In this document: piece after piece, positions 14,076-61,760 of the stretch
Layout: each line of letters starts with the position of its first letter
Numbering within the stretch: position 1 is the stretch's first letter
Source of the DNA: a virus
Length of the DNA: 63,018 nt
Virus genome (UHGV): UHGV-0170870
Strand: one strand, 5' to 3'
Position numbers and translations under genes: made by a program
The notes under the pieces: generated by a model
What the model saw: the letters and a program-made list of their open reading frames with translations, nothing else
The model's database searches: none
What the model was told of the DNA's origin: nothing

Positions 14076-14127
14076 TCTCGCGATGGTGATATTGAACCCG
14101 TGAGTTGCCCGACGTGTCAAGAGGCGT

Positions 14128-14170: not shown

Positions 14171-14196
14171 TTGCCAACCCGAAAGGACAAACGCCA

Positions 14197-14457: not shown

Positions 14458-14468
14458 GGGAGACACCA

Positions 14469-14981: not shown

Positions 14982-14992
14982 GGGAGGACAAC

Positions 14993-15199: not shown

Positions 15200-15289
15200 C
15201 CGATGGCGCTCCTGGCTCTCTTCGCCCTCGGCCTCGCCATCCCTGGCGCGCTCGCGATCTGGTGCTTCATCCAGCTCGCCAAGGCCTGA

Positions 15290-15640: not shown

Positions 15641-15840
15641 TGAGCGGCGGAGGGTCTCCCCGATCTGATCGTGCTCTCCGTTGCTGTGGGGCCGTGGAGC
15701 CCTGATGCCGAGGCCAGGCGTTGAGCCGGGGCGGCTGGTGGTCCTGGGAGGCCGGTCAGGCGGTCAGGCTCTCAGCGGGTGGCTGTGAGGCGGTCAGGCG
15801 TTCGGCCTCTCAGTCGGTCAGTCGTTCAGCCAGGGAGGGA

Positions 15841-15885
15841 GATTTAATTGACGGTGTGAGGAATGGGAGGTTACAGACCTACCGT
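15841..15885 (+). promoter_or_regulatory. promoter-like element, class 2, with ATTTAATTGAC upstream motif
   Basis: GATTTAATTGACGGTGTGAGGAATGGGAGGTTACAG. Confidence 0.4.
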
Positions 15886-15909
15886 ACCCCCAACATCGAG
15901 GCAATCCGT

Positions 15910-16245
15910 TTGTCCATCCAATTCACCACACCGAAAGGGAACCCGGTCGTGATCCGGCGACCCGAGCTGATCGTGTCTATGGTCGGCTACGAGCGGTCAG
16001 ATCGCGAGACCGGCGAGATGCGGCAGAACACCGCCATCACCTTCGAGAACCGTGAGGTCGTCTTCGTGAGCGGCAGCGCGGACGTGATCGAAGCGGCGCT
16101 CGAAGAGCACGCACGCGTTGCGCGCCTCAACTCGGAATACTGCGACCGCTGCCCCGCCCTGGCGAACGCGTCCGAAGAGCTGAAGCAGTACGAGGCGGTC
16201 GTGGACGCCGCCGAGCCCCCGGCAGACACGGACAATCGCCTCTGA
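15910..16245 (+). CDS. hypothetical protein (start uncertain, TTG proposed)
   Basis: ORF-track start 15721 lies upstream of the predicted promoter; first plausible start is TTG 15910 after GAGG. Confidence 0.3.
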   Translation: MSIQFTTPKGNPVVIRRPELIVSMVGYERSDRETGEMRQNTAITFENREVVFVSGSADVIEAALEEHARVARLNSEYCDRCPALANASEELKQYEAVVDAAEPPADTDNRL

Positions 16246-16889
16246 TGACCGATCCGATGCGCGCCGTGCTCGACGGCACCGATCCCGACTCCGTGCTGGT
16301 CCGCGTCCGCACCGCCGAGGGCGTCGCCCTGGCGACCCGCAAGGACTACGGCCGTCCCATCGACTATCTGCGCTATCGCGTGAAGGACAAGATCAGCGAC
16401 GCGCAGTTCATGGCGGCCGAATACTACGCTGGCGACTACTTCGCGATCTCGCCGGTCGGCTCGAACACGATGGCGACGATCAATCACCTGATGATGGCCG
16501 TGCCTCTCTCGCCGGAGGATCGCCGCATGCTCGACCAAGAGGGCATCAACGGCGGACGCATGCACTCGAAGGGCGATTGCGGCGGAGCGCCGAAGGACCC
16601 GAGCGACCGCATGCTGAACGCGGCGTTCGCGCTGAAGCGTGTCGACGATCAACTCGACCGCGTCCAACGCGAGCTGCTCCGCGATCTGCTCATCCGCGAA
16701 CACACGGTCGGCACCATTGCGCAGCGATGGCGATGGTCGCCCGAGCAGGCTGGCATCATGGTCCGCTACGCGCTGCATCGCCTGGTCGACGTGTACGAGA
16801 ACATCAACCCCGACTTCGCGCTGTATCTGCGGCAAGAGCGCGAACGCAAGAACGAAGGCCGCGCCAACCGCAAGGGACGCCGACGCTGA
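16245..16889 (+). CDS. hypothetical protein with C-terminal HTH-like region
   Basis: 214-aa ORF; TVGTIAQRWRWSPEQAGIMVRYALHRL resembles a sigma-region-4-like HTH. Confidence 0.45.
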   Translation: MTDPMRAVLDGTDPDSVLVRVRTAEGVALATRKDYGRPIDYLRYRVKDKISDAQFMAAEYYAGDYFAISPVGSNTMATINHLMMAVPLSPEDRRMLDQEGINGGRMHSKGDCGGAPKDPSDRMLNAAFALKRVDDQLDRVQRELLRDLLIREHTVGTIAQRWRWSPEQAGIMVRYALHRLVDVYENINPDFALYLRQERERKNEGRANRKGRRR

Positions 16890-17020
16890 TGCGCTGGTCT
16901 GGATACGCCCGCGATCTCGACGACATGGTCGCCACGCAGCGCTTTGTCAAAACGGTCGCGTTCGCCGCAGGACTGATCGTTCTTCAAGTCCTGCTCTTCG
17001 CCCTCTGCTTCATCCACTAA
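16889..17020 (+). CDS. small hydrophobic protein (43 aa)
   Basis: ATG overlaps upstream stop (TGATG); C-terminal hydrophobic stretch. Confidence 0.3.
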   Translation: MRWSGYARDLDDMVATQRFVKTVAFAAGLIVLQVLLFALCFIH

Positions 17021-17181
17021 CCCGGAGACCACCATTGAAGACACTCGACGAGCTGTTCTGCACGATCATGTCGATCCCCTTTGTCGACACGAACATCAAG
17101 ACTCGAGCAGGCTATCTGCGGACCCAGGTCTGCAAGCAGGGTCGCGGATACGACCTCTACCGCATGTTCGGATTCTGATCC

Positions 17182-17730
17182 ATGCTTTTCCCGTACCGCA
17201 TGATGGTGGTCGGTCATGGCCGACACGGCAAAGACACTGCCGCTGAAATTCTGCGCGATCACTATGGCGCGACGTTCGTCTCGTCGAGCTGGTTCATGGC
17301 AGAGCGTGTCGTGTTTCCGTACTTCTGCGAGAAGTACCCCGGCAAGTATGCCTCGGCGCAAGAGTGCTACGATGACCGCGCGAACGAGCGCTCGACGTGG
17401 TTCAATCTGATCGCCGAGAGCAATGCGGCCGATCTCACGAAGTTGGGTCGCGCGATCTTCGCGAAGTACGATCTCTACGTCGGCAACAGGAACGCCCGCG
17501 AGTTTCACGCCCTGCGGAACGCCAGCGTGTTCGACATCTCGATTTGGATCGACGCGTGCGAGCGCCTCGAATACCGCGAGCCCCGCACGTCCCTCACAAT
17601 CGAGCCCTGGATGTGCGATTACGTGGTCGACAACAACGGCACCCAGGCCGATCTCAAGCGGAACCTGGCCTCGCTGATGCACGGATTGCGGACCAAGTCC
17701 TTGATCCAAAAGGGATTGTCAGCAGCGTGA
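17182..17730 (+). CDS. P-loop kinase-like protein (possible deoxynucleoside monophosphate kinase)
   Basis: N-terminal VVGHGRHGKDTAAE resembles phage dNMP kinase N-termini. Confidence 0.4.
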   Translation: MLFPYRMMVVGHGRHGKDTAAEILRDHYGATFVSSSWFMAERVVFPYFCEKYPGKYASAQECYDDRANERSTWFNLIAESNAADLTKLGRAIFAKYDLYVGNRNAREFHALRNASVFDISIWIDACERLEYREPRTSLTIEPWMCDYVVDNNGTQADLKRNLASLMHGLRTKSLIQKGLSAA

Positions 17731-17760
17731 CCTGACAAGCCGGCCGAGGGAAGTTTGTGA

Positions 17761-17803
17761 GGGGAAAAAGTTGACGTTGGGATGTCAACTGCCTATTTTC
17801 CCC
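17761..17803. promoter_or_regulatory. 43-bp nested palindrome (candidate operator or centromere-like site)
   Basis: GGGGAAAA-AGTTGAC-GTTGGGAT-GTCAACT-GCCTA-TTTTCCCC. Confidence 0.4.
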
Positions 17804-17940
17804 ATACGGACAAATGGGCGAGGGGCCGGAACGAGAGTTACCCGGCATCGCCTAGTCTGAACCGACCCCGGCCTTGGCCGACATTCCGAACCCCGGCGCT
17901 TCAGTGCGTCGGGGTTTCGCGTTTCCACTAGGAGCCCGTC

Positions 17941-18126
17941 ATGGGATGCAACTGCGGAAAGCGCCGCGATCTCACGGCGCAGGCGATCAAGAACGTTCGC
18001 ACCGGCAACTTCGACGCCGCTCGTCAGAACGCGCAACGCTTCGTGAAGACGTTGCAGCTCGACGCGCGCAACATCGCGCGCAGCGTGGGGCGCTCGACGC
18101 TGATGAAGCGCCCGCCTTCAAGGTGA
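17941..18126 (+). CDS. hypothetical small protein
   Basis: 61-aa ORF preceded by GGAG. Confidence 0.3.
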   Translation: MGCNCGKRRDLTAQAIKNVRTGNFDAARQNAQRFVKTLQLDARNIARSVGRSTLMKRPPSR

Positions 18127-18127
18127 G

Positions 18128-18805
18128 ATGATGGCCGGTACGCAAACGAACTACACCGGCCCCACGAAGATATACCGCGCGTCACAGGGGCCGATGCCCG
18201 CGTCGGCATACACGCAGTCACATGGCGGCGTGATCTATGTCGACTTGACCGACGCGATGAAGCGCCTCACCGTGGCGTTCAACGTGTACGGCGACGAGGT
18301 CAAACACCGCGCGCTCTACAACGCGATCAACAAGCTCGGCGACAAGCTGCTCACGGCTGTTCGTCGCGACCTCGTCCAAACGACGGGTGCGAAGTACGGA
18401 CGCGTGATGAAAGCGGTTCACGCAGATCGCGCGCATCCCAATCGCCTGTTCTATCGCATCGTTGCGAGCGACAAGGCGATGAAGGTGAGCGACTTCGCGC
18501 GGTCGCTGACGCCAGGCAAGAAGAACCCGAGCGCCAAGCCTTGGAATCGCTCGCAGCGCTTCAAGGGTGCGTTCGTTATCCGCTTCAAGAACGGTGCCAC
18601 CGAGATCGTCAAGCGTATCGGGAAGCACAACAAGAGCGGCAAGATCAGAACATTGTGGGGTCCGATCATCCCGAAGGAAATGATCCGGCCCGGCAACCCG
18701 AGCACGTACCACATTGCTTCGGCGATCCCGACGCAGTTGGGGCCGGTGCTCATGCACGAACTCGAACAAGCCGTGATCCGCGCGAAAGCGGCGAGCGGCA
18801 CATAA
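18128..18805 (+). CDS. hypothetical protein
   Basis: 225-aa ORF upstream of ParA-like gene. Confidence 0.45.
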   Translation: MMAGTQTNYTGPTKIYRASQGPMPASAYTQSHGGVIYVDLTDAMKRLTVAFNVYGDEVKHRALYNAINKLGDKLLTAVRRDLVQTTGAKYGRVMKAVHADRAHPNRLFYRIVASDKAMKVSDFARSLTPGKKNPSAKPWNRSQRFKGAFVIRFKNGATEIVKRIGKHNKSGKIRTLWGPIIPKEMIRPGNPSTYHIASAIPTQLGPVLMHELEQAVIRAKAASGT

Positions 18806-18817
18806 CCGGAGACCCCC

Positions 18818-19465
18818 ATGAACATCCCGCATCTGGTATTCGTCGGCGCTGACAAAGGTGGCGTCGGCAAGACCATGCTGAGCCGCGCACTGCTCGGCTA
18901 CTACGGTGCCAACGGCATCGACTTCCGCGCGTTCGACACGCAATCCCCGAGCGGCGGCCTGCAACGTTTCTTTCCTGGCCGCGCGCAGATCGTGGACATC
19001 ACCAAGTCGACCGATCAGGTCAAGGTGTTCGACGACCTGGCATCGACCCAGGTGACCGTCGTCGACGTGTGCGCCGGTCTGTTGTCGCCCACGCTGAAGA
19101 CGCTCGACGTTGTCGGCTTCTTCGACGCGGCGAAGCAGAACAAGCTGCGCATCACTGTGCTGCATGTCGTCGGTCCTGCGACGCAATCGCTCGACGAGAT
19201 CAAGCCCGTGATGGCAGCGCTCGCAGGATCGAAGCACGTTGTGCTCGCGAACCATATCGACGACACCGCGTACGATGTACCGGCTGGCGCGCTCAACATT
19301 CCCCGGCTGGATGGGGAAGCGGCGAAGGCCGTCGACGCGGTCGCGCAACCGTTCCACGACTTCATCGGAAGCCAGGCGTCCTTCGTGCTGCGCGGCTACA
19401 CGCGAAGCTGGTTGAAGGACGTGTTCGCGCAGTTCGACGCTGCGCAGCTCAACAACCTGGCCTGA
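18818..19465 (+). CDS. ParA/MinD-family partition ATPase (small ParA)
   Basis: Deviant Walker A VGADKGGVGKT near N-terminus; 215 aa. Confidence 0.6.
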   Translation: MNIPHLVFVGADKGGVGKTMLSRALLGYYGANGIDFRAFDTQSPSGGLQRFFPGRAQIVDITKSTDQVKVFDDLASTQVTVVDVCAGLLSPTLKTLDVVGFFDAAKQNKLRITVLHVVGPATQSLDEIKPVMAALAGSKHVVLANHIDDTAYDVPAGALNIPRLDGEAAKAVDAVAQPFHDFIGSQASFVLRGYTRSWLKDVFAQFDAAQLNNLA

Positions 19466-20344
19466 TACACAGACAAGAGCCCCTCATGCCTCTGACCATA
19501 AAGGCGTTGCCGTAGACCACGGCCGCGTGCGTCACGTGTGTTCAGGGCCATCCACTATGCGCTAGGTCAGCGCCGTGTCGCGGATGGGCGCTATTCGGGG
19601 AATAGCAGGCAAGGTGAGGGCACCCGCCATATGAAGGTCGGTGCGGCCTCGCCATCCCCGTGCAATTCGATACCCCCTCTGAACGACTTTTCTCAGAACG
19701 AGAAAACGAAAATTCGCAGAACGAAAAACCAAAAATTCACGTTCTGCGAAACGAGCTGAGTGGCATGGATCAAGGGCGAGAGAACTGCGCTCACAGGGAT
19801 CATCAGCTCATACCCCAAACGAGCTGTGCATCACCGTTATGAACGATGCGCTTCACGATCCATGCCGCTCACCCAAACAGCACGCGTTGAGGCGCGTGGA
19901 GCCAAGCGATTGGCTCGCCAGGATACGAGCAGACGGGGGTCATGCTCTCCTGGCTCTGTGCGACCCGCGACGATGAGTAGATACGGCGCTGGCGGGAGCG
20001 ACGTGTCGAATACCCCGTCGCGGGTCGCAACCCGTCCGCTCGCGCGAGCACGCGCACGCACGCGCGGAAAAATTTTTTTTCGAGAGCATGTTGGTTTTGG
20101 AGATCGCCAAAATCGCAGTTGGGCGGATTGATGACAGTGCGATCTCGTCAGTGCTCAAAAGCCACAATCGCCGAGGTATGCGCGGCCACTCGGCCGAAAA
20201 CGCGGTGTGGCATTTCGATAAAAGTGCAACATGCCTCTAGGATCGCATTAGGCGCGCGCCCATGCGCTCAATCCGTCGCCCGGTATTTCGTACCATTGGG
20301 GCGGGTTGAGCGAATGAGCGGCGCGGAATTGGACGAAAAAAAAA

Positions 20345-20408: not shown

Positions 20409-20513
20409 CAAAGCTATGGCGGTTCGTCGCACGAATCGCCCGCGCCGTTATCGGCGCATGGCAAGCAAGCGAGGGCAAAGCACGTCATAGCAAAATCGCG
20501 GTTTGTCATCTCG

Positions 20514-20696
20514 TTAGGCCTTCTTCGCTTCTACCGCGCCAGTAATGCGCTTGTCAGAGTGATATCGCGACTCGCCATGCGTCATAACGTCAACCGGCTG
20601 TAGCGCGAGCGTTGAAACACGATTGGCAATCTCGCGCAAACCGATTGCGCCGATATGGTCGGCCAATCGGCCATCAATGTAAACAGTGGGATTCAT
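20514..20696 (-). CDS. hypothetical small protein
   Basis: 60-aa ORF directly downstream of hammerhead motif copy 1 and an AAAGG RBS. Confidence 0.35.
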   Translation of the reverse strand: MNPTVYIDGRLADHIGAIGLREIANRVSTLALQPVDVMTHGESRYHSDKRITGAVEAKKA

Positions 20697-20717
20697 GGCG
20701 TTAGTACCTTTCGACTT

Positions 20718-20775
20718 GGACTCATCAGTGGCCGCGTAACGGCCAGACCGCGCTACCTGGCGCGCGGTTTCGTCC
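20718..20775 (-). ncRNA. type II hammerhead ribozyme motif, copy 1
   Basis: RNA 5' GGAC-GAAA-[CCGCGC GCCAGGUA GCGCGG]-UC/UGGCCG UUACG CGGCCA-CUGAUGA-GUCC: all core nucleotides, GUC cleavage triplet, stems I and III as hairpins, stem II closed by the ends. Confidence 0.8.
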
Positions 20776-21047
20776 TAGTAGTAGCAATGGCGGAAAACGT
20801 AATTCCCGTTGTCGTCGCCCGTGAGATAGCCTCTAACGCGACAACCCGCGACGCTACAGACAGCCGGAATGGAAAAATACGTGTCGGGCTCCCCCGTGAC
20901 GTAAACAGTGCGGCGCATGTCGCCCGCCATGTTATCGAGTCGGCAGTTCTCGACCTTCGCCAATGTGGGGCCACCCATCCACACCGCAAACCACGCGGTT
21001 GATCCATCGGGCATATGTTCCGATTTGTCGGCGCGATACTTTTGCAT
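20775..21047 (-). CDS. hypothetical protein
   Basis: 90-aa ORF in small-gene cassette. Confidence 0.4.
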   Translation of the reverse strand: MQKYRADKSEHMPDGSTAWFAVWMGGPTLAKVENCRLDNMAGDMRRTVYVTGEPDTYFSIPAVCSVAGCRVRGYLTGDDNGNYVFRHCYY

Positions 21048-21050
21048 TGG

Positions 21051-21293
21051 TCAATCCCTCTCGATTAGCGCGGTATAGGTTCGGCAATCGCTCGCGAGAA
21101 CGCCGAACTGCGCCGCGTCATGCCAGCGCATGAATCCCGCGTCGTCGCAGCTAACGATTGAACCGCCTAACCACGCGGCGAACTTGTCCGCTTGTGCAAT
21201 TTCGGAATCTTCCATTCCGGAAGCGTCGCCATTGATGAAATACGACGCCCAATAGCTAGGCGCGGTCCCCGTGACAGTGTCGAAGGTTGCCAT
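21051..21293 (-). CDS. hypothetical protein
   Basis: Start at internal ATG 21293 preceded by GAAGGG; ORF track extends to 21326. Confidence 0.4.
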   Translation of the reverse strand: MATFDTVTGTAPSYWASYFINGDASGMEDSEIAQADKFAAWLGGSIVSCDDAGFMRWHDAAQFGVLASDCRTYTALIERD

Positions 21294-21297
21294 TGGC

Positions 21298-21690
21298 TCA
21301 ACCCTTCGCTTTCTTGACGCGCGCATAGTCGCCCGCGCTCTTAAAGTATGTGCCGTGATAGGTTGCGCCGTTGATCGCGCGAACGGTTACCGGGACACGC
21401 TTTCCGCCAAAGTTGTCGCGGTACTCTCGACCAAACGACGCGGAGCCAAGCCTTTCCCCGTTCCACGTTGTGGCGGTATTGGTCTTTGCGTTGATATAGA
21501 GGAAATACCGTTCCGGTATGTCCCGCATAAACTCGAATAGCTCGACCTGGCCGCGCTCGTCATTGGTCGGCGGGTTGATATGGGGCGGCAGTTCGGAGGG
21601 ATGATAGCTATTCGTTTTGCGTGCTTTCATCCACGCGTGCAAAGCCTCATCCCTGGCGCGGATGTCGGCGGCTTGTTCTGGCGTTAGCAT
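21298..21690 (-). CDS. hypothetical protein
   Basis: 130-aa ORF directly downstream of hammerhead motif copy 2. Confidence 0.45.
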   Translation of the reverse strand: MLTPEQAADIRARDEALHAWMKARKTNSYHPSELPPHINPPTNDERGQVELFEFMRDIPERYFLYINAKTNTATTWNGERLGSASFGREYRDNFGGKRVPVTVRAINGATYHGTYFKSAGDYARVKKAKG

Positions 21691-21710
21691 TGGCGTTAGT
21701 ACCTTTCGTT

Positions 21711-21763
21711 GGACTCATCAGTGGCCGCGTAACGGCCAGACCGCGCTAGGCGCGGTTTCGTCC
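21711..21763 (-). ncRNA. type II hammerhead ribozyme motif, copy 2
   Basis: Same core as copy 1; stem III loop is CUA instead of GCCAGGUA, a loop-size change that preserves pairing. Confidence 0.8.
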
Positions 21764-22023
21764 TAGCGTTGCGATTCCAAGAATTTCGCTATGGTGTACG
21801 GTTCAACCGTCACTTTGACGTGGAGGCTGTAATCGTCATCAGCCCAAACCGTTGCGCAGTATCCGTAGATTGAGAGATAGCCCGGAGCAGTCATGTTACT
21901 TTCAACGTGACGCTTGATTACCTCCACGCCTCTATCAACAGTGAAAGCGAAGCTAGGATTGAGACGAGTCAAGAGGTCTGCGACCTCGCGCACATTGCTG
22001 TGATTCCAATTGAGTGCAGGCAT
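21763..22023 (-). CDS. hypothetical protein
   Basis: 86-aa ORF preceded by GAAAGGAAAAC. Confidence 0.4.
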   Translation of the reverse strand: MPALNWNHSNVREVADLLTRLNPSFAFTVDRGVEVIKRHVESNMTAPGYLSIYGYCATVWADDDYSLHVKVTVEPYTIAKFLESQR

Positions 22024-22045
22024 TGGCGTGTTTTCCTTTCTAGGG

Positions 22046-22483
22046 TTAGCGGTGGTAAATCCAACCGCGATAGACTTCGCAGTAAGCTTCGCTGAACGTC
22101 TTAGCGGCCTTGTGGAGCGCGTCGCCCGCGTCGCCTAAACCACGGTCCCAATAGCCAACGCCGTGGCCTTGACGCGAAAACCAAAAGTCATGGCCCGCCT
22201 GCTCTTCGGAGTAGCCATGCGACTCGGCCAAGCGGTCGAGCCATTGCCGGACGAAACAGCCATCCGGCATGATGAAACCGAGAAACGAGTCGCAATCGCT
22301 CGCAATGTCGCGGATTGCTTCGCGCGTGAGTCTCTCGACTCCCAAATCATTCAACCGCGACTCGTTGTCGTCGCCCGTGTCGCCATTGGTGAAAAACACG
22401 GCTTCTACGTATGCCTTCGCGAACGTTGAAAGCTTGTCGTAAGCACGCGGCGCGGGGGTATCGTTCAAGACAAATTCAGGCAT
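22046..22483 (-). CDS. hypothetical protein
   Basis: Start at internal ATG 22483 (MPEFVLND) preceded by GGAAGG; ORF track extends to 22582. Confidence 0.45.
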   Translation of the reverse strand: MPEFVLNDTPAPRAYDKLSTFAKAYVEAVFFTNGDTGDDNESRLNDLGVERLTREAIRDIASDCDSFLGFIMPDGCFVRQWLDRLAESHGYSEEQAGHDFWFSRQGHGVGYWDRGLGDAGDALHKAAKTFSEAYCEVYRGWIYHR

Positions 22484-22487
22484 TGGC

Positions 22488-22898
22488 TCAACCTTCCAAC
22501 TTGGCGCGAAGGTCGGCCATTTCGTTTGCGTGGTTACGTTCTGCGCGCTCGATTGCCGCGCGAGTGATCGCCTTAGCATCAAGCGTGTTCAAGCAATCCC
22601 ACATATCTTTAGTGGCTTGCTCTGATGTGCGGCGCGCGTGTTCTAGATCGCAACGCGAAACCACAGTTCCGAACACGTCAAATATGACGTAGCGAAAGCC
22701 TCGCTTGCGATTCTCAAAGTCGAGTGCATCGCTTGTGACGATTGCGAAAAGCAAACCGTTGTCGACGACTCGCGCGGAGATGACGCGCGACTTGTGGAAT
22801 CGCAAATTATCGTCATCCACGTAATGTGTGCGACCGCAAAGGTTGCGTTGCGCGTTGGTCTTTGGATCATGCGATTCAGTGCGGAAAAGCGTAGTCAT
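22488..22898 (-). CDS. hypothetical protein
   Basis: Start at internal ATG 22898 (MTTLFRTE) directly downstream of hammerhead motif copy 3; ORF track extends to 22991 through the ribozyme. Confidence 0.45.
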   Translation of the reverse strand: MTTLFRTESHDPKTNAQRNLCGRTHYVDDDNLRFHKSRVISARVVDNGLLFAIVTSDALDFENRKRGFRYVIFDVFGTVVSRCDLEHARRTSEQATKDMWDCLNTLDAKAITRAAIERAERNHANEMADLRAKLEG

Positions 22899-22919
22899 GG
22901 CGTTGTTTCCTTTCGACTT

Positions 22920-22972
22920 GGACTCATCAGTGGCCGCGTGACGGCCAGACCGCGCTAGGCGCGGTTTCGTCC
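22920..22972 (-). ncRNA. type II hammerhead ribozyme motif, copy 3
   Basis: Same core; stem I loop UCACG instead of UUACG; followed by RBS and ATG 22898. Confidence 0.8.
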
Positions 22973-23251
22973 TATTTGTCAGGTGACACATACGACACGC
23001 TAGGCGTGCGAAAGCCTTTCACGTTGTGCGAAGTGTAGGAGTCGCGTCGGTTCATTTCACAACCGATAGCGGCAAAGGCGATAACGATACCGATTGAAAC
23101 TGCGACGCAAACCGCGTCGCGCAGTGCTGCAAGGTATGCGCGGACCATTAGCGTGCCCTCGCGATGCAGAACGAAAAGCAAAACCGGCCAATGCGGATAA
23201 ACCGCAAGCCGCCGACTCGTTTTGTGCTGAAATTGATTGCGTTCATGGTGT

Positions 23252-23509
23252 TCACGCTACCGGACGGGATTGGTCGGCGGAAACATTGCACGAAACGACG
23301 CGGTAGAAGTCTCGGCTGTAGCGCGGGCGATCATTTCCGCGCACCGAAGAAAAGGCGAGGCGACGATACATTGCGTCGAAAGCTTCGCTAGGGTCGCGTA
23401 GCCAAAGGCGGGCGATCCAATCGCACCCATTGAGCGTGCAACGAAAGCGAATGTCATAGGCCTTGCGACGCGGTGGCGTTGGCATTGGGCGAAAATTCAA
23501 TTCGGTCAT
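23252..23509 (-). CDS. hypothetical protein
   Basis: Start at internal ATG 23509 preceded by GAAAGGACAAACGCCA; first gene of leftward small-gene cassette. Confidence 0.4.
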   Translation of the reverse strand: MTELNFRPMPTPPRRKAYDIRFRCTLNGCDWIARLWLRDPSEAFDAMYRRLAFSSVRGNDRPRYSRDFYRVVSCNVSADQSRPVA

Positions 23510-24018
23510 TGGCGTTTGTCCTTTCGAGCGTGTCGCCCCCGCGTGTGCGGTGGCAGGTGTGTAAGGTAGCACACCTAACGCATACAGCAAGCGTCTAGTT
23601 CGCCCCTAATGCCTGTATTCGTTGGCTTTCTTGCGTGTTGCGCGCTCGCTTAGCGCGCTCCGACATGCCACGCGCGCCAGCGTCGCGCCTTACGAGGCAT
23701 GCAATGCGCGCATGCAAAGCAAGCCGCGTGCCACGCTCCGCGCTATCGCGCTGTAATAGAGCGTGATGAGCAAGAAACACCGCGATATCAGAGACTTGCT
23801 CGCGTTTGTAACAAACCGTGATCTCGGCCGCGCCGACCCACCCCCTGGGGTGTGGGTCCCTGTCGCCACACCCCCTCCCACCGGGGGCAGTCGCCGCCCC
23901 CGAAAGTCGGCAACGTTTTAGCGAATTTGCTCACTCTTGATCGCACGGGTCGCCCCCGCGAGCTATGCGCCTCACGCGTGAGAAACGTCACCTAACACCC
24001 CCTTTGGAGCCCCCGAAC

Positions 24019-49361: not shown

Positions 49362-49412
49362 CCATTTAATTGACGGAACCGATAGGTCTGTGAGATAGCA
49401 GACCTTACAGTC
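49362..49412 (+). promoter_or_regulatory. promoter-like element, class 1
   Basis: ATTTAATTGACG-N17-AGATAG followed by GCAGACCTTACAG; upstream of phosphoesterase gene. Confidence 0.5.
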
Positions 49413-53618: not shown

Positions 53619-53798
53619 CTGTCATTCCCCTCGACTCAGCTATATGCCGCTCAGCGGCCGGTAGACGCTCGTCACCTATCATACCTTACAGGCCGAGCAA
53701 AGCGTTTTCTTTGATTTCCGATCCTAAGCCATTGGTGGAATTGTGGTGGGGTCCTCGGGGTCTTTGAGACCAACCCCATTGAAAACATTGAATAAGCT

Positions 53799-53887: not shown

Positions 53888-55018
53888 CTAGAACCTGTCA
53901 GCGGGTCTTTGAACAGTCTTTGACGTAAACGAGCCCGGTTCGTTCCCCTCGACCTTACAAGCTCCTGACGCAAACATGCCAGCGAGCTTCGCCATCGCGC
54001 TCTCCGCCAGGCGCAGATCGCGCCCGAGGTAGTGCCGGTCCAGAATGTGCTCCACGTCCTTCAGGCTGTGGCCGGTGAACGTGGCGATCTCCGGCACTGT
54101 GCATTCGGCGAGCGCCAGGCGCACCACCGCTGAGCCGCGCAGATCGTGGAACGTCAAGTCCTCGTTGATCCCCACGTCGATCAGGGCGTCGCCCCAGGAC
54201 GACCGGAAGCCGTCCTCTGTCCACGGCTTGGCCCGAGAGTTGGTCAGCACCAGCGGCCCGACCCGCTTCATGGAGTCGAGGTAGGTCTTGAGCACGGGGC
54301 TGACAGGGATGGTGACCCGCTTGGCCTTGGCGACCTTGCCGTGGCGTATGGTCTTGCGCTGCGTGAGCCTGATGTAGGTTCCGTCGTAATCCGACCAGCG
54401 CAGGCGGATCAGATCGCCCTCCCGCTGGCCGGTCCAGATCGCGAGCATGAGCGCGTCGACGATCCGCTCCGGGGCTTTCTCGATCATGAGCCCGAGCTGC
54501 GCTTCGGACCATATCTTGTCGAGGCGATCCCCGCCCTCGTAGAGACGGCCGCCGCGCTCGCAGGGATTGACGCTGATGCGTCCGCGATCCTTGGCGACGG
54601 AGAAGATGCGGGCGAGCACGGTCCACGCATAGTCGGCCTTGCGAGGCTTGTCTGCGAACCCATCGCGCCAGGTCTTGAAGACGCCACGCGCGCCCTTCTG
54701 TTCGACGGCCGCAATCGGCATCGTGCCGAACTCTTGCTCGATGAGGGCGATGTAACGGAGGTAGTCTTTCTTCGTCTTGTCGCTGAGCACTCGGTACTCG
54801 GACGACGCTTTGAACTCGACGATGAGCGCGAAGACCGTGGCGTCTGACACGGTCTTCTTGCTCGCTATGTGCTCGTTGAACTCGGTGATGAATGCGGGCG
54901 TGCCGTACTTCGCCTTGATGCGGGGGCCGCCCTTCCACGCGTAGTAGTACCGACGCTTCTTGCCGCCGCCGATCTTGGCGTCGGACCAGAACAGGCCGAA
55001 CAGGTCTACGCGCATCAC
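53888..55018 (-). CDS. int: tyrosine-type site-specific integrase
   Basis: 376 aa; C-terminal catalytic region with HDLRGS and HYLGRD (Tyr); adjacent to tRNA-like att sequence. Confidence 0.85.
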   Translation of the reverse strand: MMRVDLFGLFWSDAKIGGGKKRRYYYAWKGGPRIKAKYGTPAFITEFNEHIASKKTVSDATVFALIVEFKASSEYRVLSDKTKKDYLRYIALIEQEFGTMPIAAVEQKGARGVFKTWRDGFADKPRKADYAWTVLARIFSVAKDRGRISVNPCERGGRLYEGGDRLDKIWSEAQLGLMIEKAPERIVDALMLAIWTGQREGDLIRLRWSDYDGTYIRLTQRKTIRHGKVAKAKRVTIPVSPVLKTYLDSMKRVGPLVLTNSRAKPWTEDGFRSSWGDALIDVGINEDLTFHDLRGSAVVRLALAECTVPEIATFTGHSLKDVEHILDRHYLGRDLRLAESAMAKLAGMFASGACKVEGNEPGSFTSKTVQRPADRF

Positions 55019-55024: not shown

Positions 55025-55285
55025 CTAGCTGACAGCCCTCCGCCTGGAAGCCTGCCAGTCTGCGAGGGGATCGCCCGAGACGGTCTTTTCGGTAGGCAGA
55101 CCGGAAGCCCGGTCCAGATACCAATCAATCGCCTTGCGGTCCCACCGCTGCGTGCCGGGGATCGCCCCCGGCACAATACCCCTCTTGACCCAGGTGTCGA
55201 AGGCGTCGGTGCTGCACCCGCAATAGGCTGCCGCGTGTTCCTTCGTCAGGCCGCGAGGGGCGATCTGGTCGGCGGGTAATATCAC
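55025..55285 (-). CDS. excisionase / AlpA-like HTH DNA-binding protein
   Basis: LTKEHAAAYCGCSTDAFDTWVKRGIVPGAIP...W HTH pattern; likely GTG start at 55285; ORF track extends to 55363. Confidence 0.5.
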   Translation of the reverse strand: MILPADQIAPRGLTKEHAAAYCGCSTDAFDTWVKRGIVPGAIPGTQRWDRKAIDWYLDRASGLPTEKTVSGDPLADWQASRRRAVS

Positions 55286-55290
55286 AGACC

Positions 55291-55596
55291 TTACAGTCTG
55301 TCCACAGGGATCGACGCCACGAACGACTTGGCCCGGCCGTAGAAGTATGCCCGTTGCTTGCACCGTTCGATATGCGAGTCCCGAGAGGGCGACGGCGGTT
55401 CGTTCAGCATATTGTCGACCGCCCTGCCTGCGATGTCCTCGGCGCTCGCCAGCGCGTCGTAGGCGTCGTCGAGAGCCTTCCGGCGCACCGCCACCAGGCG
55501 CAGGCGGCGCTTGGCGTGAAGGTCCCAGGCCACGATGCAGAGCAGGGCGGCCACGCTACCGTAGGTCAGGATGAGAGCCTGATCGTAGAAGTTCAT
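55291..55596 (-). CDS. hypothetical membrane protein
   Basis: Start at ATG 55596 with GGAAAGG RBS; TM helix ALILTYGSVAALLCIVAW; ORF track extends to 55866. Confidence 0.4.
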   Translation of the reverse strand: MNFYDQALILTYGSVAALLCIVAWDLHAKRRLRLVAVRRKALDDAYDALASAEDIAGRAVDNMLNEPPSPSRDSHIERCKQRAYFYGRAKSFVASIPVDRL

Positions 55597-55853: not shown

Positions 55854-55993
55854 TGACCAAACCCAATAAGGTTAGCGACGACGATGAGAATCTTGACCGC
55901 GATCATCAGGCCGCATCCGAGGGAGACACCGCCTACGATGCCAATGGCGGTCCCCTTCAGGATCGCCACGGCGCATTGCTTGAAGCTCCGCAT
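55850..55993 (-). CDS. small hydrophobic membrane protein (47 aa)
   Basis: ATG 55993 overlaps upstream stop (TGATG); MRSFKQCAVAILKGTAIGIVGGVSLGCGLMIAVKILIVVANLIGFGQ. Confidence 0.3.
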   Translation of the reverse strand: MRSFKQCAVAILKGTAIGIVGGVSLGCGLMIAVKILIVVANLIGFGQ

Positions 55994-57837
55994 CAGTCTG
56001 TCTCCACGCGTTTGAAGTAGACGCGGTAGACCGAGAAGCGGGTCTTGACGATCACGTCGCCGTGTTGGTCGAAGAACATCTCTTCGATGCGGCTTGTGGT
56101 GATCGGCTCGCCGTCGATGAAGCGACCCTTGGTGTCGCCGTAGACAGGGCCTTTGACGCAAGGCGCATGCGTCGGATCGCTGGCCGTATCGTTGTAGAAG
56201 ACCGCTTCCTTGATAGTGCCGTGGACCTGCATAGGTTCCTTTCCGAGAGGCTTGCGATTCTCCGCCCACACGAACTTGTTCTCCGTGGGGCTGAGCGACT
56301 TCGAGTTCTGATCGCCAAGCGTCTCGGCGACGAGAGCCCACATGGGGTGATGGTGGGAGCCCGCGCCGAGCCTCCACTGCGTCGTGTTCTGATTGACGAA
56401 CTCGCGGAAGAGGCGCAGCGCGGTTGTCGGGTCGATGGCGGCCATCAGAACTTCTTCCCGTTGGCAGCCAGGCGCGCTTCCGGCTTGTGGTCCGCGCGAT
56501 GCTTGTTGTACTCGCGCTTCCGGCTTGTGGTCCGCGCGATGCTTGTTGTACTCGCGCTTCTCGGCGACAGCGGTCCACAGGTCGTAGCCGTGCTGCTTCG
56601 CGTACCCTTCGATCAACGCGATGGCGTGGATCAGCCGCAACGCGCGATCGCGATTCGACATTGCCCGGTTGACGTTCGTCACCATGCGGCTGATGCGGAG
56701 CAACGCCTGACCCTTGTTGGCCGGGAGATCGTCGACAGGGGTCTTGAAGTTGAACGACGACGAGAGCGGAATGCTACCGAGGATGTCCCCGATGCGAATG
56801 ACAGCGTCGGCCAACTCGACTTCCGCCATCTTCCGCTTCGGCAGATGGTCGTCCATCAAGTTCTTGCGCTCACCTTCCATACACTCCGCCAGCTCGGACA
56901 CGACGAGCATGAGCATCTCGCCCATGTTGCGGTTGAGCTTTTCGCCGGTCGCCGGATCGTGCCACCAGTGCGCGTTGGCCGCATGGACTTCCTGCGCCCA
57001 TGCGTTCAGGCTTGCAGGACGGCCCTGCTCGAAGCGACGAAAGTCCCATCCCCCGCTCTCGCCCTTGTTGTAGTCGTCGTTTTCGAGAACAGCGTATCCG
57101 TTGTGGAAGCCGACGATGTTGTACGTCTTGCCGACCGTTAGACGACGGTTACCCTCGATGCAGCGAGCGGGGCCAAGCTTCAGCGCGCCCTTCTTCCGAT
57201 TCCACACGTCAAGCGCCTTCTCGGCCTGTGCGCGCGTCACGAACATCGACGCCGAGGGCGGAACGTCGCCAGCCGTGAACAGGTCATCGTCCTCGTTGAC
57301 ACGCGGGTCGATGTACGGCGTGCCGATCCACGGACGCTGCTCCTGCATGCGGGGCAGGGCGCGCGACGACGGACGCATCTGTTCGCCGTACAGTTCGCGC
57401 GGCGCGAGCGGCTTGGCGTCTGCGGGCAGAACGTCCTCGTTGAAGGACGCCTCGCGGTCGCGCAGCGCGTTCGCGACCTCGGACGGTTCGAGGCGTTGCG
57501 GCAACTCGGCCAGTTTCTTGCGGGCGAACTCCGCGACGGCCGGGAGGTCTTCCGGCTTCACGTCGGTCAGCCGGTTGGCCTTTCCGTGGACCCTGACGGC
57601 CGTGACAACGTGGAGCCTGTCGGGGTACGCGTCGCGCAGCTTCACCAAGAGCGCCTTGACCTCAGAGTGCGTCAAGGTGGGAGGCGCAGGCGGAGCGCCG
57701 GTCTTCGCAAAGGCGATCAGATCGGCACGGAGCTGCGCCGCCATCGCAGTTTCGATAGCCTCGCGCGTCGCACGATAGCTGCCGCCGAAGTCCTTCGGGA
57801 TGAGAAACAGAACAGTGGGGGTCATGGTAGGTGACAA
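55993..57837 (-). CDS. fusion ORF: unknown N-terminal domain + MazG-like NTP pyrophosphohydrolase-like domain, fused in frame to a downstream 150-aa ORF by a 40-bp tandem duplication
   Basis: MazG-like segment EMLMLVVSELAECMEGER...AEVELADAVIRIGDILG; removing one 40-bp repeat unit restores a stop (…HKPEARLAANGKKF*) overlapping ATG of the MAAIDPTT ORF. Confidence 0.5.
   Translation of the reverse strand: MSPTMTPTVLFLIPKDFGGSYRATREAIETAMAAQLRADLIAFAKTGAPPAPPTLTHSEVKALLVKLRDAYPDRLHVVTAVRVHGKANRLTDVKPEDLPAVAEFARKKLAELPQRLEPSEVANALRDREASFNEDVLPADAKPLAPRELYGEQMRPSSRALPRMQEQRPWIGTPYIDPRVNEDDDLFTAGDVPPSASMFVTRAQAEKALDVWNRKKGALKLGPARCIEGNRRLTVGKTYNIVGFHNGYAVLENDDYNKGESGGWDFRRFEQGRPASLNAWAQEVHAANAHWWHDPATGEKLNRNMGEMLMLVVSELAECMEGERKNLMDDHLPKRKMAEVELADAVIRIGDILGSIPLSSSFNFKTPVDDLPANKGQALLRISRMVTNVNRAMSNRDRALRLIHAIALIEGYAKQHGYDLWTAVAEKREYNKHRADHKPEARVQQASRGPQAGSAPGCQREEVLMAAIDPTTALRLFREFVNQNTTQWRLGAGSHHHPMWALVAETLGDQNSKSLSPTENKFVWAENRKPLGKEPMQVHGTIKEAVFYNDTASDPTHAPCVKGPVYGDTKGRFIDGEPITTSRIEEMFFDQHGDVIVKTRFSVYRVYFKRVETD
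56481..56560. repeat. Perfect 40-bp tandem duplication (2 units) inside coding sequence
   Basis: Units 56481-56520 and 56521-56560 are identical: CGGCTTGTGGTCCGCGCGATGCTTGTTGTACTCGCGCTTC; 40 is not a multiple of 3. Confidence 0.9.
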
Positions 57838-57840
57838 TCC

Positions 57841-58026
57841 TTACAGGCCAGACGCAGAAAGATAGGACCGGAGGGCGATGGTCCCGTGTGATGACGTTCC
57901 GAGGTAGGCGTCGAAGAACCAACCGCGCTCGCGCGCTATCGACACCCACGCCTCTCGAAAGATGTAGTTGAAGCGCATGCGAGCGATTTGCATGGCCCGC
58001 CCTTTGGCCTTGTCTTCAGGTGACAT
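57841..58026 (-). CDS. hypothetical small protein
   Basis: 61-aa ORF with GGAG RBS. Confidence 0.3.
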   Translation of the reverse strand: MSPEDKAKGRAMQIARMRFNYIFREAWVSIARERGWFFDAYLGTSSHGTIALRSYLSASGL

Positions 58027-58207
58027 CGTAGGCTCCCTTGTACGGATAGAGGATCGCGAGTTCGGAGACGGTGAGCTTCCCGATCTTCTCGGTCAGCTCA
58101 TGTTCTTGCAGCGGCACAGGCGGCCTGCCTGCGGCGCTGAACGGCTTTTCGTGCCAGACCTGGGGCTCCGGTCCTTTCAGGCCTTGCACATAGACGAACG
58201 TAGACAT
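58016..58207 (-). CDS. hypothetical small protein downstream of sigma factor
   Basis: AGGAGG RBS 5 nt upstream of ATG 58207. Confidence 0.35.
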   Translation of the reverse strand: MSTFVYVQGLKGPEPQVWHEKPFSAAGRPPVPLQEHELTEKIGKLTVSELAILYPYKGAYDVT

Positions 58208-58228
58208 GGGGGTCCTCCTGTTTGAAGT

Positions 58229-58726
58229 TCACAACGCTCCGGCGAGCGCTTCACGGGCGCGATGGACGCGAGACTTGACCGTCCCCATCGCGACGCCGGT
58301 TATCTCCTGCATCTCCTGATACGTGCAGCCGATCCCTGCGAGCACAACGGCATCCGCCTGCGCGTCGGGGAGATCGAGCAAAGCATCCCACGCCTCGGCC
58401 AGGATCATCGCGCGCTCCGGGTTCTCCGGCGCAACGATATGGTCCGCGTAATCCAGCTCGCCCGTATAGGTCAGCCGTTGCAGGCGCGGGCCACCGCCCT
58501 TCTGCTTGCGGTAGCCCTTGTTGAACCGATCACGGATCAGGTTCTTCAGGATCGTCATCAACCAGCCTTCCAGATTGCGGCCGTCGAAGCGCTTCCGGTT
58601 GGCGAGCGCGTTGACCATCGTCTGCGAGACCAGATCGTCCGCGTCGTCGGCATGGCCGATGTTTTTGAGCGCGTAGTTCTTGAGCAAGCGCCGCGATGCC
58701 CACACGCCCTGTTCGAATTGATCCAT
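58229..58726 (-). CDS. ECF-type sigma-70 family RNA polymerase sigma factor
   Basis: Region 2-like (VSQTMVNALANRKRFDG...WLMTILKNLIRDRF) and region 4 HTH (YQEMQEITGVAMGTVKSRVHRAREAL); start at internal ATG 58726; ORF track extends to 58879. Confidence 0.7.
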   Translation of the reverse strand: MDQFEQGVWASRRLLKNYALKNIGHADDADDLVSQTMVNALANRKRFDGRNLEGWLMTILKNLIRDRFNKGYRKQKGGGPRLQRLTYTGELDYADHIVAPENPERAMILAEAWDALLDLPDAQADAVVLAGIGCTYQEMQEITGVAMGTVKSRVHRAREALAGAL

Positions 58727-58730
58727 GCCG

Positions 58731-61019
58731 TCATTCCTTCTTGTAGCGATCATCGGACCAACCGCTGGCCGCGATGGGGAGCCCGAGCCGGTTGCCTTTC
58801 GGCAGAGCCCACACAGGCGGGGTGGTGAAGATTTCGTGGAACTCGTCCTCGCTGCCGAAGTCCTCGTCGGTCTCGGCAACGCCTTCGTCGTGGACGCTCA
58901 GCACGTTCTCGTAGCCTGCGGCTTCGGTGTTCATGATCGCGTTCGCCATCACGTCGCGAGCTGCGGCCTGCGTGACGTTCTCCGCGCCGAGCCCGCCGTA
59001 GTAGTGCTGGTCGGACCACTTGCGGGTGAAGCTGTCGTTCGCCTTGAAGATCAGCGTGCGCTTCGACTTGCCCCACGGGGTCGGCTTCCACTCGACACGC
59101 GGATACGGATAGAAGATCGAACGGCCACTCGGCAGCTTGCAGCGGAGGAACGAGCCGGTCATGTTGAACGTGATGAACTCGCCCGCCTTGAACTTCTGGC
59201 CGGGGTTCTCCACCGCGTTGATCGCCGCCTCTTCGAGGTCGTACCAGAACTGCACGATCTCCGGATTGTTCTCGCGCCAGGTGAGCTTGACCATCTCGGC
59301 CGCGAGCCAGGCCTTCTTCTTGATGCCCGACTTCCGGCCGCGATCCTTCCAGCCTTCGAGCGCGCGATCCCGGTTGTCCGGCGACGTGACGGCCCACACC
59401 GTGTCGAAGATGAGCGCCAGGTCGACGCGGTAGACCTTCGCCATGTTGGCGAACGCCGACGCGCCACCGCCGAAGCCGAGCGCGAGCACGGCGACCTTGC
59501 CGACCTGGCGCTGATCCTTGCTGACCTCTGCGACCGGGATGTTGTAAATCTGCGAGGCCGCGACCTTGTAGTTGTCGGGGCCGTTACCCTTATCGAACTC
59601 GAAGAACGCCGCGATAGCTTCGTGCGCGCCAGCCAGCCAGGGCAGGGTGCGGGCCTCGATGCCGGTCAAGTCACGCGAGCGCAGCACCCGGCCCTCGGGG
59701 GCCATGAGCATGCCGCGCAGACAGTCGGCGACCACCGAGATCGGCGGCCCGAAGATCGCAGCAATGTCCTGCCGGGACCAACCGGCCTTGATGCACTTGA
59801 TGGCGAACGGAACGTCGGTCTTCAGCGCGGGGTCGGGACGCGGCAAGTTCTGCAACTGCACGCCACGCGCGGCCCATCGGCCGGTCTGTGTCGCGCCGTG
59901 GTATTGCAGCGAGCCCTTGATCTTGCCGTCCTTGCAGACGCGCTCCGTGAAGGCCTTCAGCTTGGCGATGGACGCCTTACCGGCTTCTAGCCTGATCTCG
60001 ACCGCACGGCGCGCATCGTCCGGCAGGTCGTCCCGGCCGAGCAGCTTTTCGAGCGTTTCCTTCGAGCAGTTCTCAATCTGATGGTCTGACAGCTCATCGG
60101 CCAGACGGGCGTTGACGAACTCTTTGAGCTGCTTGACCGCGCCGAGCGTCGAGACGCGCAGTTCGGTGACCTGGCGCAGCTCGAACTCAAGGGCTTCCTT
60201 TTCCTCGTTGCAGATTTTCTCGGCCTTGGCGACCAAGTCCATGTCGACCATGATGCCACGGTCGTTGATGATCTGATCGAGGAACCAAAGCTCCTGCTCG
60301 CGCGAGATGAGCTTGGTGACGCGATGCCCGATGCCCTGCTCGACGCGAACGTCTTGCAGACAGTAGTCGTAGATGATCTTGAACTTGTCCGGCGCGTTCT
60401 CCGGGGTGAAGCGCGTTTCCGGGTTCTTCTTCGACGGCTTACGCGGCTTGCAGAGCTGCTTGATGACGCGCGAGCCGACATCGTCCTTGCGGATCGGCAG
60501 GCCGAAAGCCGGAGCGGCGTGCTCCAACTTCGCGGGCATGTTCATCGCCATCGCGCGGACCATGATGCAACGGTACTGGCGCAGGTCAGGGACCGGCCAG
60601 CCGTACTTCGGGCCTGCGACGTACAGCCAGATCAGCCGTTCGAAGTTGGCGTTCCAGGCGTGGACTTCGCCGCCAGCCTTGACGTGGTCGACGATGTCCT
60701 GGGGGCAGGGCTCGTCAGGAAACCAGAGCTGCGGTTCATCGTCGCCGAACGCATAGGCGGCGCAAAGAATCTCCGTGCTCTTGTGCTCGGCGTACTTGTG
60801 CGCGCCGACATCGGGCAGGTCGATCTCGCTGTACGTTTCCCAATCGAGATGCAGTTCGGCAGGCTTGTGGATCGCCGTGCGACGAGTGACGGGGCCATAG
60901 CCGAAGCGCTCGCGCAGAGAGGGGGGAACGTCGATCCCCATCTCGCGCATCATATCGGCGGCGCTGTCGTAGCCGAGCACTTCCCAATCGGCGAATTTGT
61001 CTAGGGCTTCATGCCGCAT
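58731..61019 (-). CDS. family A DNA polymerase with N-terminal 3'-5' exonuclease domain
   Basis: Exo motif DWETYSEID; polymerase motifs RQVGKVAVLALGFGGG and SVHDEGVAE; start proposed at ATG 61019 overlapping upstream stop; ORF track extends to 61067. Confidence 0.85.
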   Translation of the reverse strand: MRHEALDKFADWEVLGYDSAADMMREMGIDVPPSLRERFGYGPVTRRTAIHKPAELHLDWETYSEIDLPDVGAHKYAEHKSTEILCAAYAFGDDEPQLWFPDEPCPQDIVDHVKAGGEVHAWNANFERLIWLYVAGPKYGWPVPDLRQYRCIMVRAMAMNMPAKLEHAAPAFGLPIRKDDVGSRVIKQLCKPRKPSKKNPETRFTPENAPDKFKIIYDYCLQDVRVEQGIGHRVTKLISREQELWFLDQIINDRGIMVDMDLVAKAEKICNEEKEALEFELRQVTELRVSTLGAVKQLKEFVNARLADELSDHQIENCSKETLEKLLGRDDLPDDARRAVEIRLEAGKASIAKLKAFTERVCKDGKIKGSLQYHGATQTGRWAARGVQLQNLPRPDPALKTDVPFAIKCIKAGWSRQDIAAIFGPPISVVADCLRGMLMAPEGRVLRSRDLTGIEARTLPWLAGAHEAIAAFFEFDKGNGPDNYKVAASQIYNIPVAEVSKDQRQVGKVAVLALGFGGGASAFANMAKVYRVDLALIFDTVWAVTSPDNRDRALEGWKDRGRKSGIKKKAWLAAEMVKLTWRENNPEIVQFWYDLEEAAINAVENPGQKFKAGEFITFNMTGSFLRCKLPSGRSIFYPYPRVEWKPTPWGKSKRTLIFKANDSFTRKWSDQHYYGGLGAENVTQAAARDVMANAIMNTEAAGYENVLSVHDEGVAETDEDFGSEDEFHEIFTTPPVWALPKGNRLGLPIAASGWSDDRYKKE

Positions 61020-61715: not shown

Positions 61716-61760
61716 AGTGGTCGAAATGTAAGCTGACGCACCTTACACGTCAACTAAATT
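61716..61760 (-). promoter_or_regulatory. promoter-like element (TTGACG-N17-TACATT)
   Basis: Minus strand TTTAGTTGACGTGTAAGGTGCGTCAGCTTACATT upstream of methyltransferase-polymerase operon. Confidence 0.4.

Follow-up and report, generated by a model that had tools for sequence, protein, structure and literature searches.

An EcfG-related sigma factor gene coupled to a phage DNA polymerase gene in a temperate Bradyrhizobium myovirus, with a possible role in late transcription

The virus genome UHGV-0170870 (63,018 nt; this whole stretch of DNA is called the window below) carries at 58229-58726, on the minus strand, a gene encoding an intact two-domain sigma factor of the extracytoplasmic function (ECF) type, whose closest relative in sequence comparisons is EcfG, the general-stress sigma factor of the Alphaproteobacteria. 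The window is a circularly permuted copy of the 63-kb genome of a temperate myovirus of Bradyrhizobium, in which the sigma gene stands between a family-A DNA polymerase gene and two small open reading frames (ORFs), here called orf63 and orf61. A sequence-only reading of this DNA had proposed that an ECF-type sigma factor lies inside the replication operon, that it redirects the host RNA polymerase, possibly to the late genes, and that a small downstream ORF might encode an anti-sigma factor. The first of these proposals is borne out by the domains of the protein and by the 4-nt spacing after the polymerase gene. The second is a plausible mechanism, and the late-gene reading of 58229-58726 as a whole is the one that we tentatively prefer, while giving it somewhat less than an even chance of being correct.

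Several protein family databases identify the gene product. Region 2 is recognised by Pfam Sigma70_r2 (PF04542; E 1.2e-12, 47.9 bits against a cut-off of 24) and the helix-turn-helix of region 4.2 by Sigma70_r4_2 (PF08281; E 2.2e-9, 37.3 bits, cut-off 25.7). Likewise, Pfam Sigma70_ECF (E 3e-5, 24.4 bits, cut-off 21.1), PHROG 1740 'RNA polymerase sigma factor' (E 4.6e-21) and the NCBIfam sigma70-ECF model TIGR02937 (54.3 bits, cut-off 42.9) all match. The protein has 165 amino acids when the ATG at 58726 is taken as its start, as in public gene calls; the mechanical ORF (58229-58879) opens at an upstream TTG. It consists of sigma2 and sigma4 only (residues 12-70 and 112-161), without region 1.1 or 3, which is the architecture of group 4 sigma-70 family factors.

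A relation to EcfG is agreed upon by three independent lines of evidence, i.e., a structure match, the neighbours of the relatives and the family models. Twenty-one PDB sequences match the window sigma factor, mostly ECF sigma factors or their domains, the best of them (5uxx_A, E 1.4e-12) being a sigma chain whose partner in the entry, chain B, is named 'Anti-sigma factor NepR'. A metagenome scan with an alignment of the alleles of this locus yielded 80 loci with sigma factors 28-42% identical, and the nearest cellular relatives (38-42%) are located behind nepR genes. NepR is encoded by the ORF directly upstream in most of the best-scoring loci, with a match to Pfam PF18557 (E 1e-15 to 1e-18) in four of the five tested. 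ORF calls downstream of the cellular relatives are noisy in these high-GC contigs; the informative neighbour is the upstream nepR. The nepR-sigma operons of the nearest relatives are preceded by GGAAC-N16/17-CGTT, which agrees with the published EcfG motif (PMC3892343, PMC6599016). Finally, the five top-scoring NCBIfam models for the window sigma factor (PRK12540, 12516, 12547, 12511 and 12546; 69-82 bits, with the next family at 56) are identical to the top five of two NepR-linked sigma factors, which passed or met the first four with 254-357 bits. However, the cut-offs of these EcfG-type families are 185-321 bits and neither nepR nor phyR lies beside the window gene, so that the sigma factor, as judged from sequence, is EcfG-related yet not a demonstrable member of EcfG. 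The small ORFs had no NepR Pfam match at E<=1. None of the 80 metagenomic loci has the polymerase or orf61 as a neighbour, and the single match to an orf63 profile among them was insignificant (E 0.017).

The sigma gene is translationally linked to the DNA polymerase gene (58731-61019, minus strand; Pfam DNA_pol_A, PHROG 17 and gene calls). The polymerase ends in YKKE*, the Shine-Dalgarno sequence AAGGA for the sigma gene lies within these last codons, and the sigma ATG begins 4 nt past the stop, a junction that is conserved in two of the related lineages described below (L008 and L031). Downstream, a gap of 21 nt leads to orf63 (58016-58207, minus strand; 63 amino acids) and holds its consensus ribosome-binding site AGGAGG at 58213-58218, read directly from the sequence as CCTCCT on the plus strand, five bases before the ATG, as the sequence-only reading had said. 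The 61-residue ORF of that reading likewise exists and is conserved; its position (57841-58026, minus strand, an 11-nt overlap with orf63) falls just outside the interval that the reading had outlined. The next gene of the operon (55993-57825, minus strand; PHROG 5658, E 1.6e-53, and gene calls) encodes a 610-residue protein with a central MazG-like pyrophosphatase domain. The sigma gene has no promoter or terminator of its own. The nearest upstream promoter is of the sigma70 type (TTGACG-17-TACATT, 61725-61753, minus strand) and heads a unit of methylase, polymerase, sigma factor, orf63, orf61, MazG-like protein and further genes; no minus-strand terminator-like site was found between this promoter at 61753 and the integrase gene. 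The GC content at third codon positions is 0.77 in the sigma gene and 0.81-0.86 in its neighbours, a closeness which, unlike the accessory region of this phage (GC 0.57), argues that the sigma gene is not a moron.

The order of polymerase, sigma factor, orf63 and orf61 is kept in five further lineages (L008, L029, L031, L040 and L041), i.e., in six of six including the window; L008 is a viral contig of 17.6 kb whose polymerase shares 82% identity with that of the window. Across these lineages, pairwise identities are 76-88% for the polymerase C-terminus, 43-57% for orf63 (69% in the closest pair) and 41-59% for orf61 (67% in the closest pair), with clear conserved motifs in both small proteins. 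The ratio of nonsynonymous to synonymous substitution rates (dN/dS) is 0.33-0.66 for orf63 and orf61 (14 of 15 pairs with a computable dS; one orf61 pair was saturated). The shared order in five other lineages, the identities of 41-69% and these dN/dS values indicate that the small ORFs are real genes. In L029 an insertion of about 300 bp separates the sigma gene from orf63. The insertion, in the stretch 467-852 of L029, holds a cysteine-rich ORF of 63 amino acids (CxxC...CxxC) and breaks the tight gene coupling.

The sigma factor itself shows only 17-45% pairwise identity (67% in the closest pair), and DNA identity falls abruptly at the polymerase stop codon and partially recovers at the start of orf63. 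The dS of the sigma gene is 1.3-2.3 against 0.7-0.9 in the flanks, the sigma values being near saturation. When the 23 called genes of the module were searched against L008 with tblastn, 17 had matches (43-82% identity); the sigma factor is the only larger or annotated gene without one, the other five being short unannotated ORFs and the integrase. The sigma factor that L008 carries at this site is 19% identical to that of the window; it keeps the sigma2 domain and passes TIGR02937, and it is not EcfG-like. From these comparisons, the L008 allele looks like a replacement by another ECF sigma factor; the sigma gene is the fastest-diverging gene of the module, and we infer that it is an exchangeable cassette between conserved flanks. 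The helix motif GTVKSRVxRAR of region 4 is retained in five of the six alleles. More distant relatives of the polymerase (L010, L011 and L014-L028) have no sigma factor, orf63 or orf61 within 10 kb where the contig reaches that far.

The sigma unit is driven by the sigma70-type promoter at 61753, which carries an operator-like 21-bp motif (61727-61747). According to the late-gene reading, induction or infection would be followed by synthesis of the sigma factor during the early/middle (replication) phase. The protein would then bind the host core RNA polymerase and start transcription at one or more phage promoters that are unused by the host sigma70. The likeliest target would be a single promoter in front of the late operon of 27 kb (plus strand, first ATG at 24019), which encodes the small and large terminase, portal, protease, major capsid protein, sheath, tape measure and lysis genes. 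No sigma70-consensus promoter was found upstream of this operon, and a scan of 48 window ORFs gave no further candidate that could be recognised as a late activator; on these two grounds a single sigma-dependent late promoter appears to be the most economical model. In this mechanism orf63 and orf61 would be conserved, co-transcribed and mutually overlapping companions, neither of them identified as an anti-sigma factor.

Several results weigh against this reading, all of which concern the specificity of the sigma factor and its target. Since the family scores lie far below every EcfG-type cut-off, promoter specificity cannot be inferred from the assignment. In the whole genome, GGAAC-N16-CGTT with at most one mismatch occurs 17 times (16.1 expected) and the N17 form 13 times (16.9 expected), and three of 26 matches to a relaxed EcfG motif fall in non-coding DNA, which makes up 11.5% of the genome. 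Scans for GGAAC, GAAC, TGAAC or GTAAC followed by N15-18-CGT gave chance-level counts, and no correctly oriented match precedes 24019. When about 7.8 kb of non-coding DNA was searched for dyads and k-mers, only the two recurrent elements described below (a TTGAC element and a TGTAAGG 21-mer) and terminator stems were recovered, without a third class; a lone promoter of non-canonical type escapes detection when the genome copies are nearly identical. The late-region relatives recovered were all 100% identical, and none of the diverged relatives, on contigs of 1-18 kb, includes late genes, so that phylogenetic footprinting was precluded. A repeated phage-specific motif upstream of the middle and late genes was not found, and the regions upstream of 34273 and 47868 contain terminator hairpins and no promoters. 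No operon has a conserved ECF-type promoter ahead of it, and the sequence-only reading, which named the operons at 24019, 34273 and 47868 as the places to look for one, is close to being contradicted as far as promoters are concerned; its late-gene proposal is supported by the lack of a sigma70-consensus promoter at the late operon and of another recognised activator among the ORFs scanned.

The first recurrent element is a sigma70-like promoter with an AT-rich upstream element, ATTTAATTGAC-N17-weak -10, which is located at 11263(+), 15842(+), 49364(+), 4151(-) and 61759(-), with weaker forms before 3515(-), 8408(+) and 14158(+). As a target of the sigma factor these TTGAC ('class 1') promoters were ruled out: the one before the SNF2 helicase gene is conserved (at 2240) in L008, which has an unrelated sigma factor, and one of them, at 61753, heads the sigma factor's own unit. 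For the same two reasons they are assigned to the host-sigma70 type. The second element is a 21-bp motif, TGTAAGG-N3-GTNA-NN-TNACA, with 25 matches at up to three mismatches where 1.23 are expected, a count that none of 100 shuffles reached. Sites are located at 3540-3560, 4115-4135, 9421-9441, 11279-11299, 14150-14170, 15855-15875, 17717-17737, 23560-23580, 23977-23997, 31738-31767, 35754-35783, 49389-49409, 53670-53690, 55275-55295, 57825-57845 and 61727-61747. The copy at 57825-57845 (minus strand) spans the junction between the orf61 stop and the start of the MazG-like gene and is kept in L008 at 11193. The best-matching 21-mers are mostly intergenic or at gene junctions, and several overlap the spacer or -10 of TTGAC promoters. 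This motif was also ruled out as a promoter of the sigma factor, being palindromic, varying in its offset from TTGAC by 6-19 nt and overlapping the start codon at four sites. The motif is partly palindromic, with TGTAAGG-N7-CCTTACA as its ideal form, and probably serves a phage repressor or regulator as its operator, behaving like the site of a dimeric protein. The claim that the late genes are free of both elements had to be corrected, with a TTGAC promoter at 49364 and weak 21-mers at 23977, 31738 and 35754.

The resemblance to EcfG raises the alternative that the sigma factor acts on the host and not on the phage late genes, hijacking the general stress response. It could transcribe host promoters of the GGAAC-N16/17-CGTT type, or soak up NepR and thereby free the host EcfG, and perhaps also serve the accessory operon of the phage. 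The NepR-linked relatives, the top PDB match from a sigma-NepR complex and the retention of GTVKSRVxRAR in five of six alleles are consistent with this view, and alphaproteobacterial genomes do contain additional, non-canonical copies of EcfG that have neither nepR nor phyR next to them (PMC3892343). Moreover, the only well-placed EcfG-type site in the phage, CGAAC-N17-CGTT at 23577-23602 (minus strand), lies 66 nt upstream of the ATG at 23511 and precedes the low-GC accessory operon. The genome-wide count of such sites equals the chance expectation, however, and this one may be a chance match. With only about 40% identity to EcfG, family scores far below the cut-offs, a gene placed in a lytic replication operon rather than in a moron-like unit, and an L008 relative in which a non-EcfG sigma factor has been swapped in at the same site, which argues that EcfG mimicry is not essential, we regard the hijacking of the host response as unlikely. 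The rapid divergence of the sigma gene suggests a further scenario, in which the gene is a specificity cassette: every allele would match a late promoter of its own, or divergence would have let it evade the host NepR while it went on exploiting the general stress response, with the lineage-restricted orf61 as a modulator. We consider this improbable; if true, the cassette would define phage 'transcription-specificity groups' analogous to immunity groups.

An anti-sigma role for the small proteins deserves separate consideration. It would make orf61, or less likely orf63, a cognate anti-sigma factor or modulator that holds the sigma factor inactive until the right time. The constant gene order in six of six lineages, a 4-nt overlap of the sigma stop with the orf63 start in L031 and L008, and the occurrence of orf61 only where the sigma factor is present all point in this direction, as does a predicted 30-residue helix in orf61, given that short helical anti-sigma factors such as NepR exist (PDB chains of 62-81 residues). 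The orf61 model (helix plus beta-hairpin) has a predicted local distance difference test score (pLDDT) of 74 and no specific fold matches, and the AlphaFold2 model of orf63 (pLDDT 81, three strands and a helix) has no match among solved folds. Neither protein has a known anti-sigma domain of the NepR, ZAS/class I or CnrY type by sequence or fold; searches for anti-sigma, NepR or ZAS signatures were negative even at E<=1, the family models searched gave no other match for them, and no PDB sequence is related to either. The protein of orf63 is one of a family of small phage proteins, some 60 amino acids long (FVYVxGLRGPEPQxW...LQxHxL...YPY; about 80 representative clusters at E<=1e-3), and in four of four distant contexts no sigma gene or orf61 lies nearby (5-6 kb where the contig reaches). 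Its neighbours there are genes of early regions and nucleotide metabolism (dUTPase, DHFR, SNF2, VRR-NUC and ParB-like), which shows that its linkage to a sigma gene is not obligate. The small proteins are also better conserved (41-69%) than the sigma factor (17-45%, 67% in the closest pair), and both persist beside the unrelated L008 sigma factor, the opposite of what is expected of a co-evolving pair; the L029 insertion separates the sigma gene from orf63, and tight gene overlaps are general throughout the operon. Although orf61 is present in all six sigma-bearing lineages and was found nowhere else, including a first metagenome scan that returned nothing, its search was less exhaustive than that of orf63 and the co-occurrence is confounded by the close kinship of the six phages. 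The anti-sigma suggestion is therefore disfavoured for orf63, whose family occurs without sigma genes, and unsupported for orf61; overall we rate it a shade less probable still than the specificity cassette. Least probable is lysogenic conversion, i.e., expression of the sigma factor from the prophage to reprogramme the host. The phage is a widespread integrated prophage of Bradyrhizobium viridifuturi and sigma factors can alter host physiology (PMC9429907), but the gene, which lacks a separate promoter and terminator, is embedded in the polymerase operon downstream of a promoter that bears an operator-like site, and its composition resembles that of its neighbours, while moron-like genes are clustered elsewhere (20480-23530, GC 0.57).

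The genome around this locus is divided into an early/replication operon on the minus strand, which spans the window ends between about 6978 and the integrase gene (53888-55018), a plus-strand operon (7106-19465), the low-GC accessory region (~20480-23530) and the late operon. Public assemblies contain an identical sigma protein in 766 index blocks, the contigs concerned being typically about 63 kb long, and one copy of the phage is integrated in a 7.5-Mb chromosome with host DctPQM genes just past the integrase. Both small ORFs carry the NCBI name hypothetical protein, Bradyrhizobium viridifuturi, and their proteins are on record on about 590 contigs. Word-index searches for homologues returned only 2-3 matches each, and no isolated phage close to the window genome was present in the phage collection searched. 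The same phage (polymerase 100% identical; L012, L013 and L017) is also found in assemblies of unrelated Actinobacteria, namely Streptomyces iakyrus NRRL ISP-5482 (a 63,072-bp contig), Phycicoccus jejuensis NRRL B-24460 and S. xylophagus NRRL B-12029; these copies look like contamination, in the laboratory or through a reagent, by a lysogen similar to Bradyrhizobium viridifuturi. The MazG-like protein differs in length among near-identical phage copies (the window, L002, L004 and L006), with lengths of 610, 596 and 446+150 amino acids occurring among them. The window gene (55993-57825) holds the string ARVQQASRGPQAGSA twice, and variation of this repeat may explain the differences in length.

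Other features of the non-coding DNA and the accessory operon were also recorded. After the plus-strand operon, a non-coding AT-rich patch (19690-19760) contains three copies of CAGAACGA, two direct and one inverted, forming GCAGAACG-N15-CGTTCTGC; an origin, a set of iterons or an operator are possible roles of the patch. In the divergent early control region (6979-7105), CTCCTACCAA occurs as two direct repeats, possibly operator sites, and the region has none of the ATTTAATTGAC promoter copies listed above. Three elements of about 60 nt with a hammerhead core (GGACGAAAC...GUC...CUGAUGAG) are present on the minus strand at 20709-20775, 21703-21763 and 22911-22972, and each of them closely precedes a small gene in the accessory operon of low GC content. 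The full Rfam Hammerhead_II model matches them with 27.5-30.1 bits (E 0.002-0.011), short of its gathering score of 37. PADLOC defence-system models gave no matches.

Phage-encoded ECF-type sigma factors, including those of rhizobiophages, are already known; what is new here is the genomic setting of this EcfG-related member, a temperate phage and its replication operon. The practical value of the finding is modest, given that this class of gene is already annotated in phages and that its target promoter was not found here by motif scans. Compared with EcfG (ECF15), the window sigma factor shares the two-domain architecture, the match to 5uxx, the top five NCBIfam models and 38-42% identity to nepR-linked sigma factors. 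It differs in being encoded by a phage within a replication operon, in scoring below the family cut-offs, in lacking nepR or phyR nearby, in being followed by small ORFs that are not NepR, and in a phage genome that is not enriched in GGAAC-N16/17-CGTT. In the literature searched, no paper links EcfG or NepR by name with a phage-encoded sigma factor, and in the phage collection at E<=1e-5 the only sequence match to the window sigma factor came from one faecal contig. A metagenomic phage contig (L048, 107-4293) encodes a DNA polymerase A fragment, a small ORF, an EcfG-like sigma factor, ThyX and nuclease genes. Its sigma factor is likewise EcfG-related (137-147 bits, same NCBIfam models) and located just downstream of a family-A DNA polymerase, but the phage is unrelated and without orf63 or orf61, and the sigma factor is 38% identical over the match.

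Among characterised phages, phiEco32 (gp36), the Kuravirus group and phage 7-11 also encode ECF-family sigma factors. The phiEco32 protein binds Escherichia coli RNA polymerase (2008 work, as cited in PMC7881722), and phage-specific middle/late promoters for the phage's own sigma factor have been predicted computationally in 7-11 (PMC4331800). In 7-11 the computed promoter motif is repeated upstream of many genes, whereas the window phage shows none; phiEco32 and 7-11 are lytic podoviruses of enterobacteria and the window phage is a temperate Bradyrhizobium myovirus. A precedent among rhizobiophages is provided by ΦM9, P10VF and their relatives, whose annotated RpoE-like sigma factor resembles alphaproteobacterial stress sigma factors, is closer to alphaproteobacterial RpoE than to other phage sigma factors and has been proposed as a late sigma factor (PMC4621102). 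The ΦM9 RpoE is 32.6% identical to the window sigma factor, and sigma factors of the ΦM9 type are 30-36% identical to the alleles of the window locus. Those phages are large (~150 kb) lytic myoviruses of the T4 superfamily that infect Rhizobium, Sinorhizobium and Agrobacterium, unlike the 63-kb temperate myovirus described here; their sigma gene lies among structural genes next to phoH, and not after a DNA polymerase gene, and has no orf63 or orf61 homologues nearby. The resemblance to EcfG raises the question of whether rhizobial phages tap the host NepR/PhyR/EcfG circuit during induction, a general-stress circuit that matters for the survival of Bradyrhizobium in soil and in symbiosis. If the sigma factor does switch on the late genes, this phage would offer a simple model of sigma-driven late transcription in a temperate alphaproteobacterial phage, and a test of the 2015 proposal made for the ΦM9 type.

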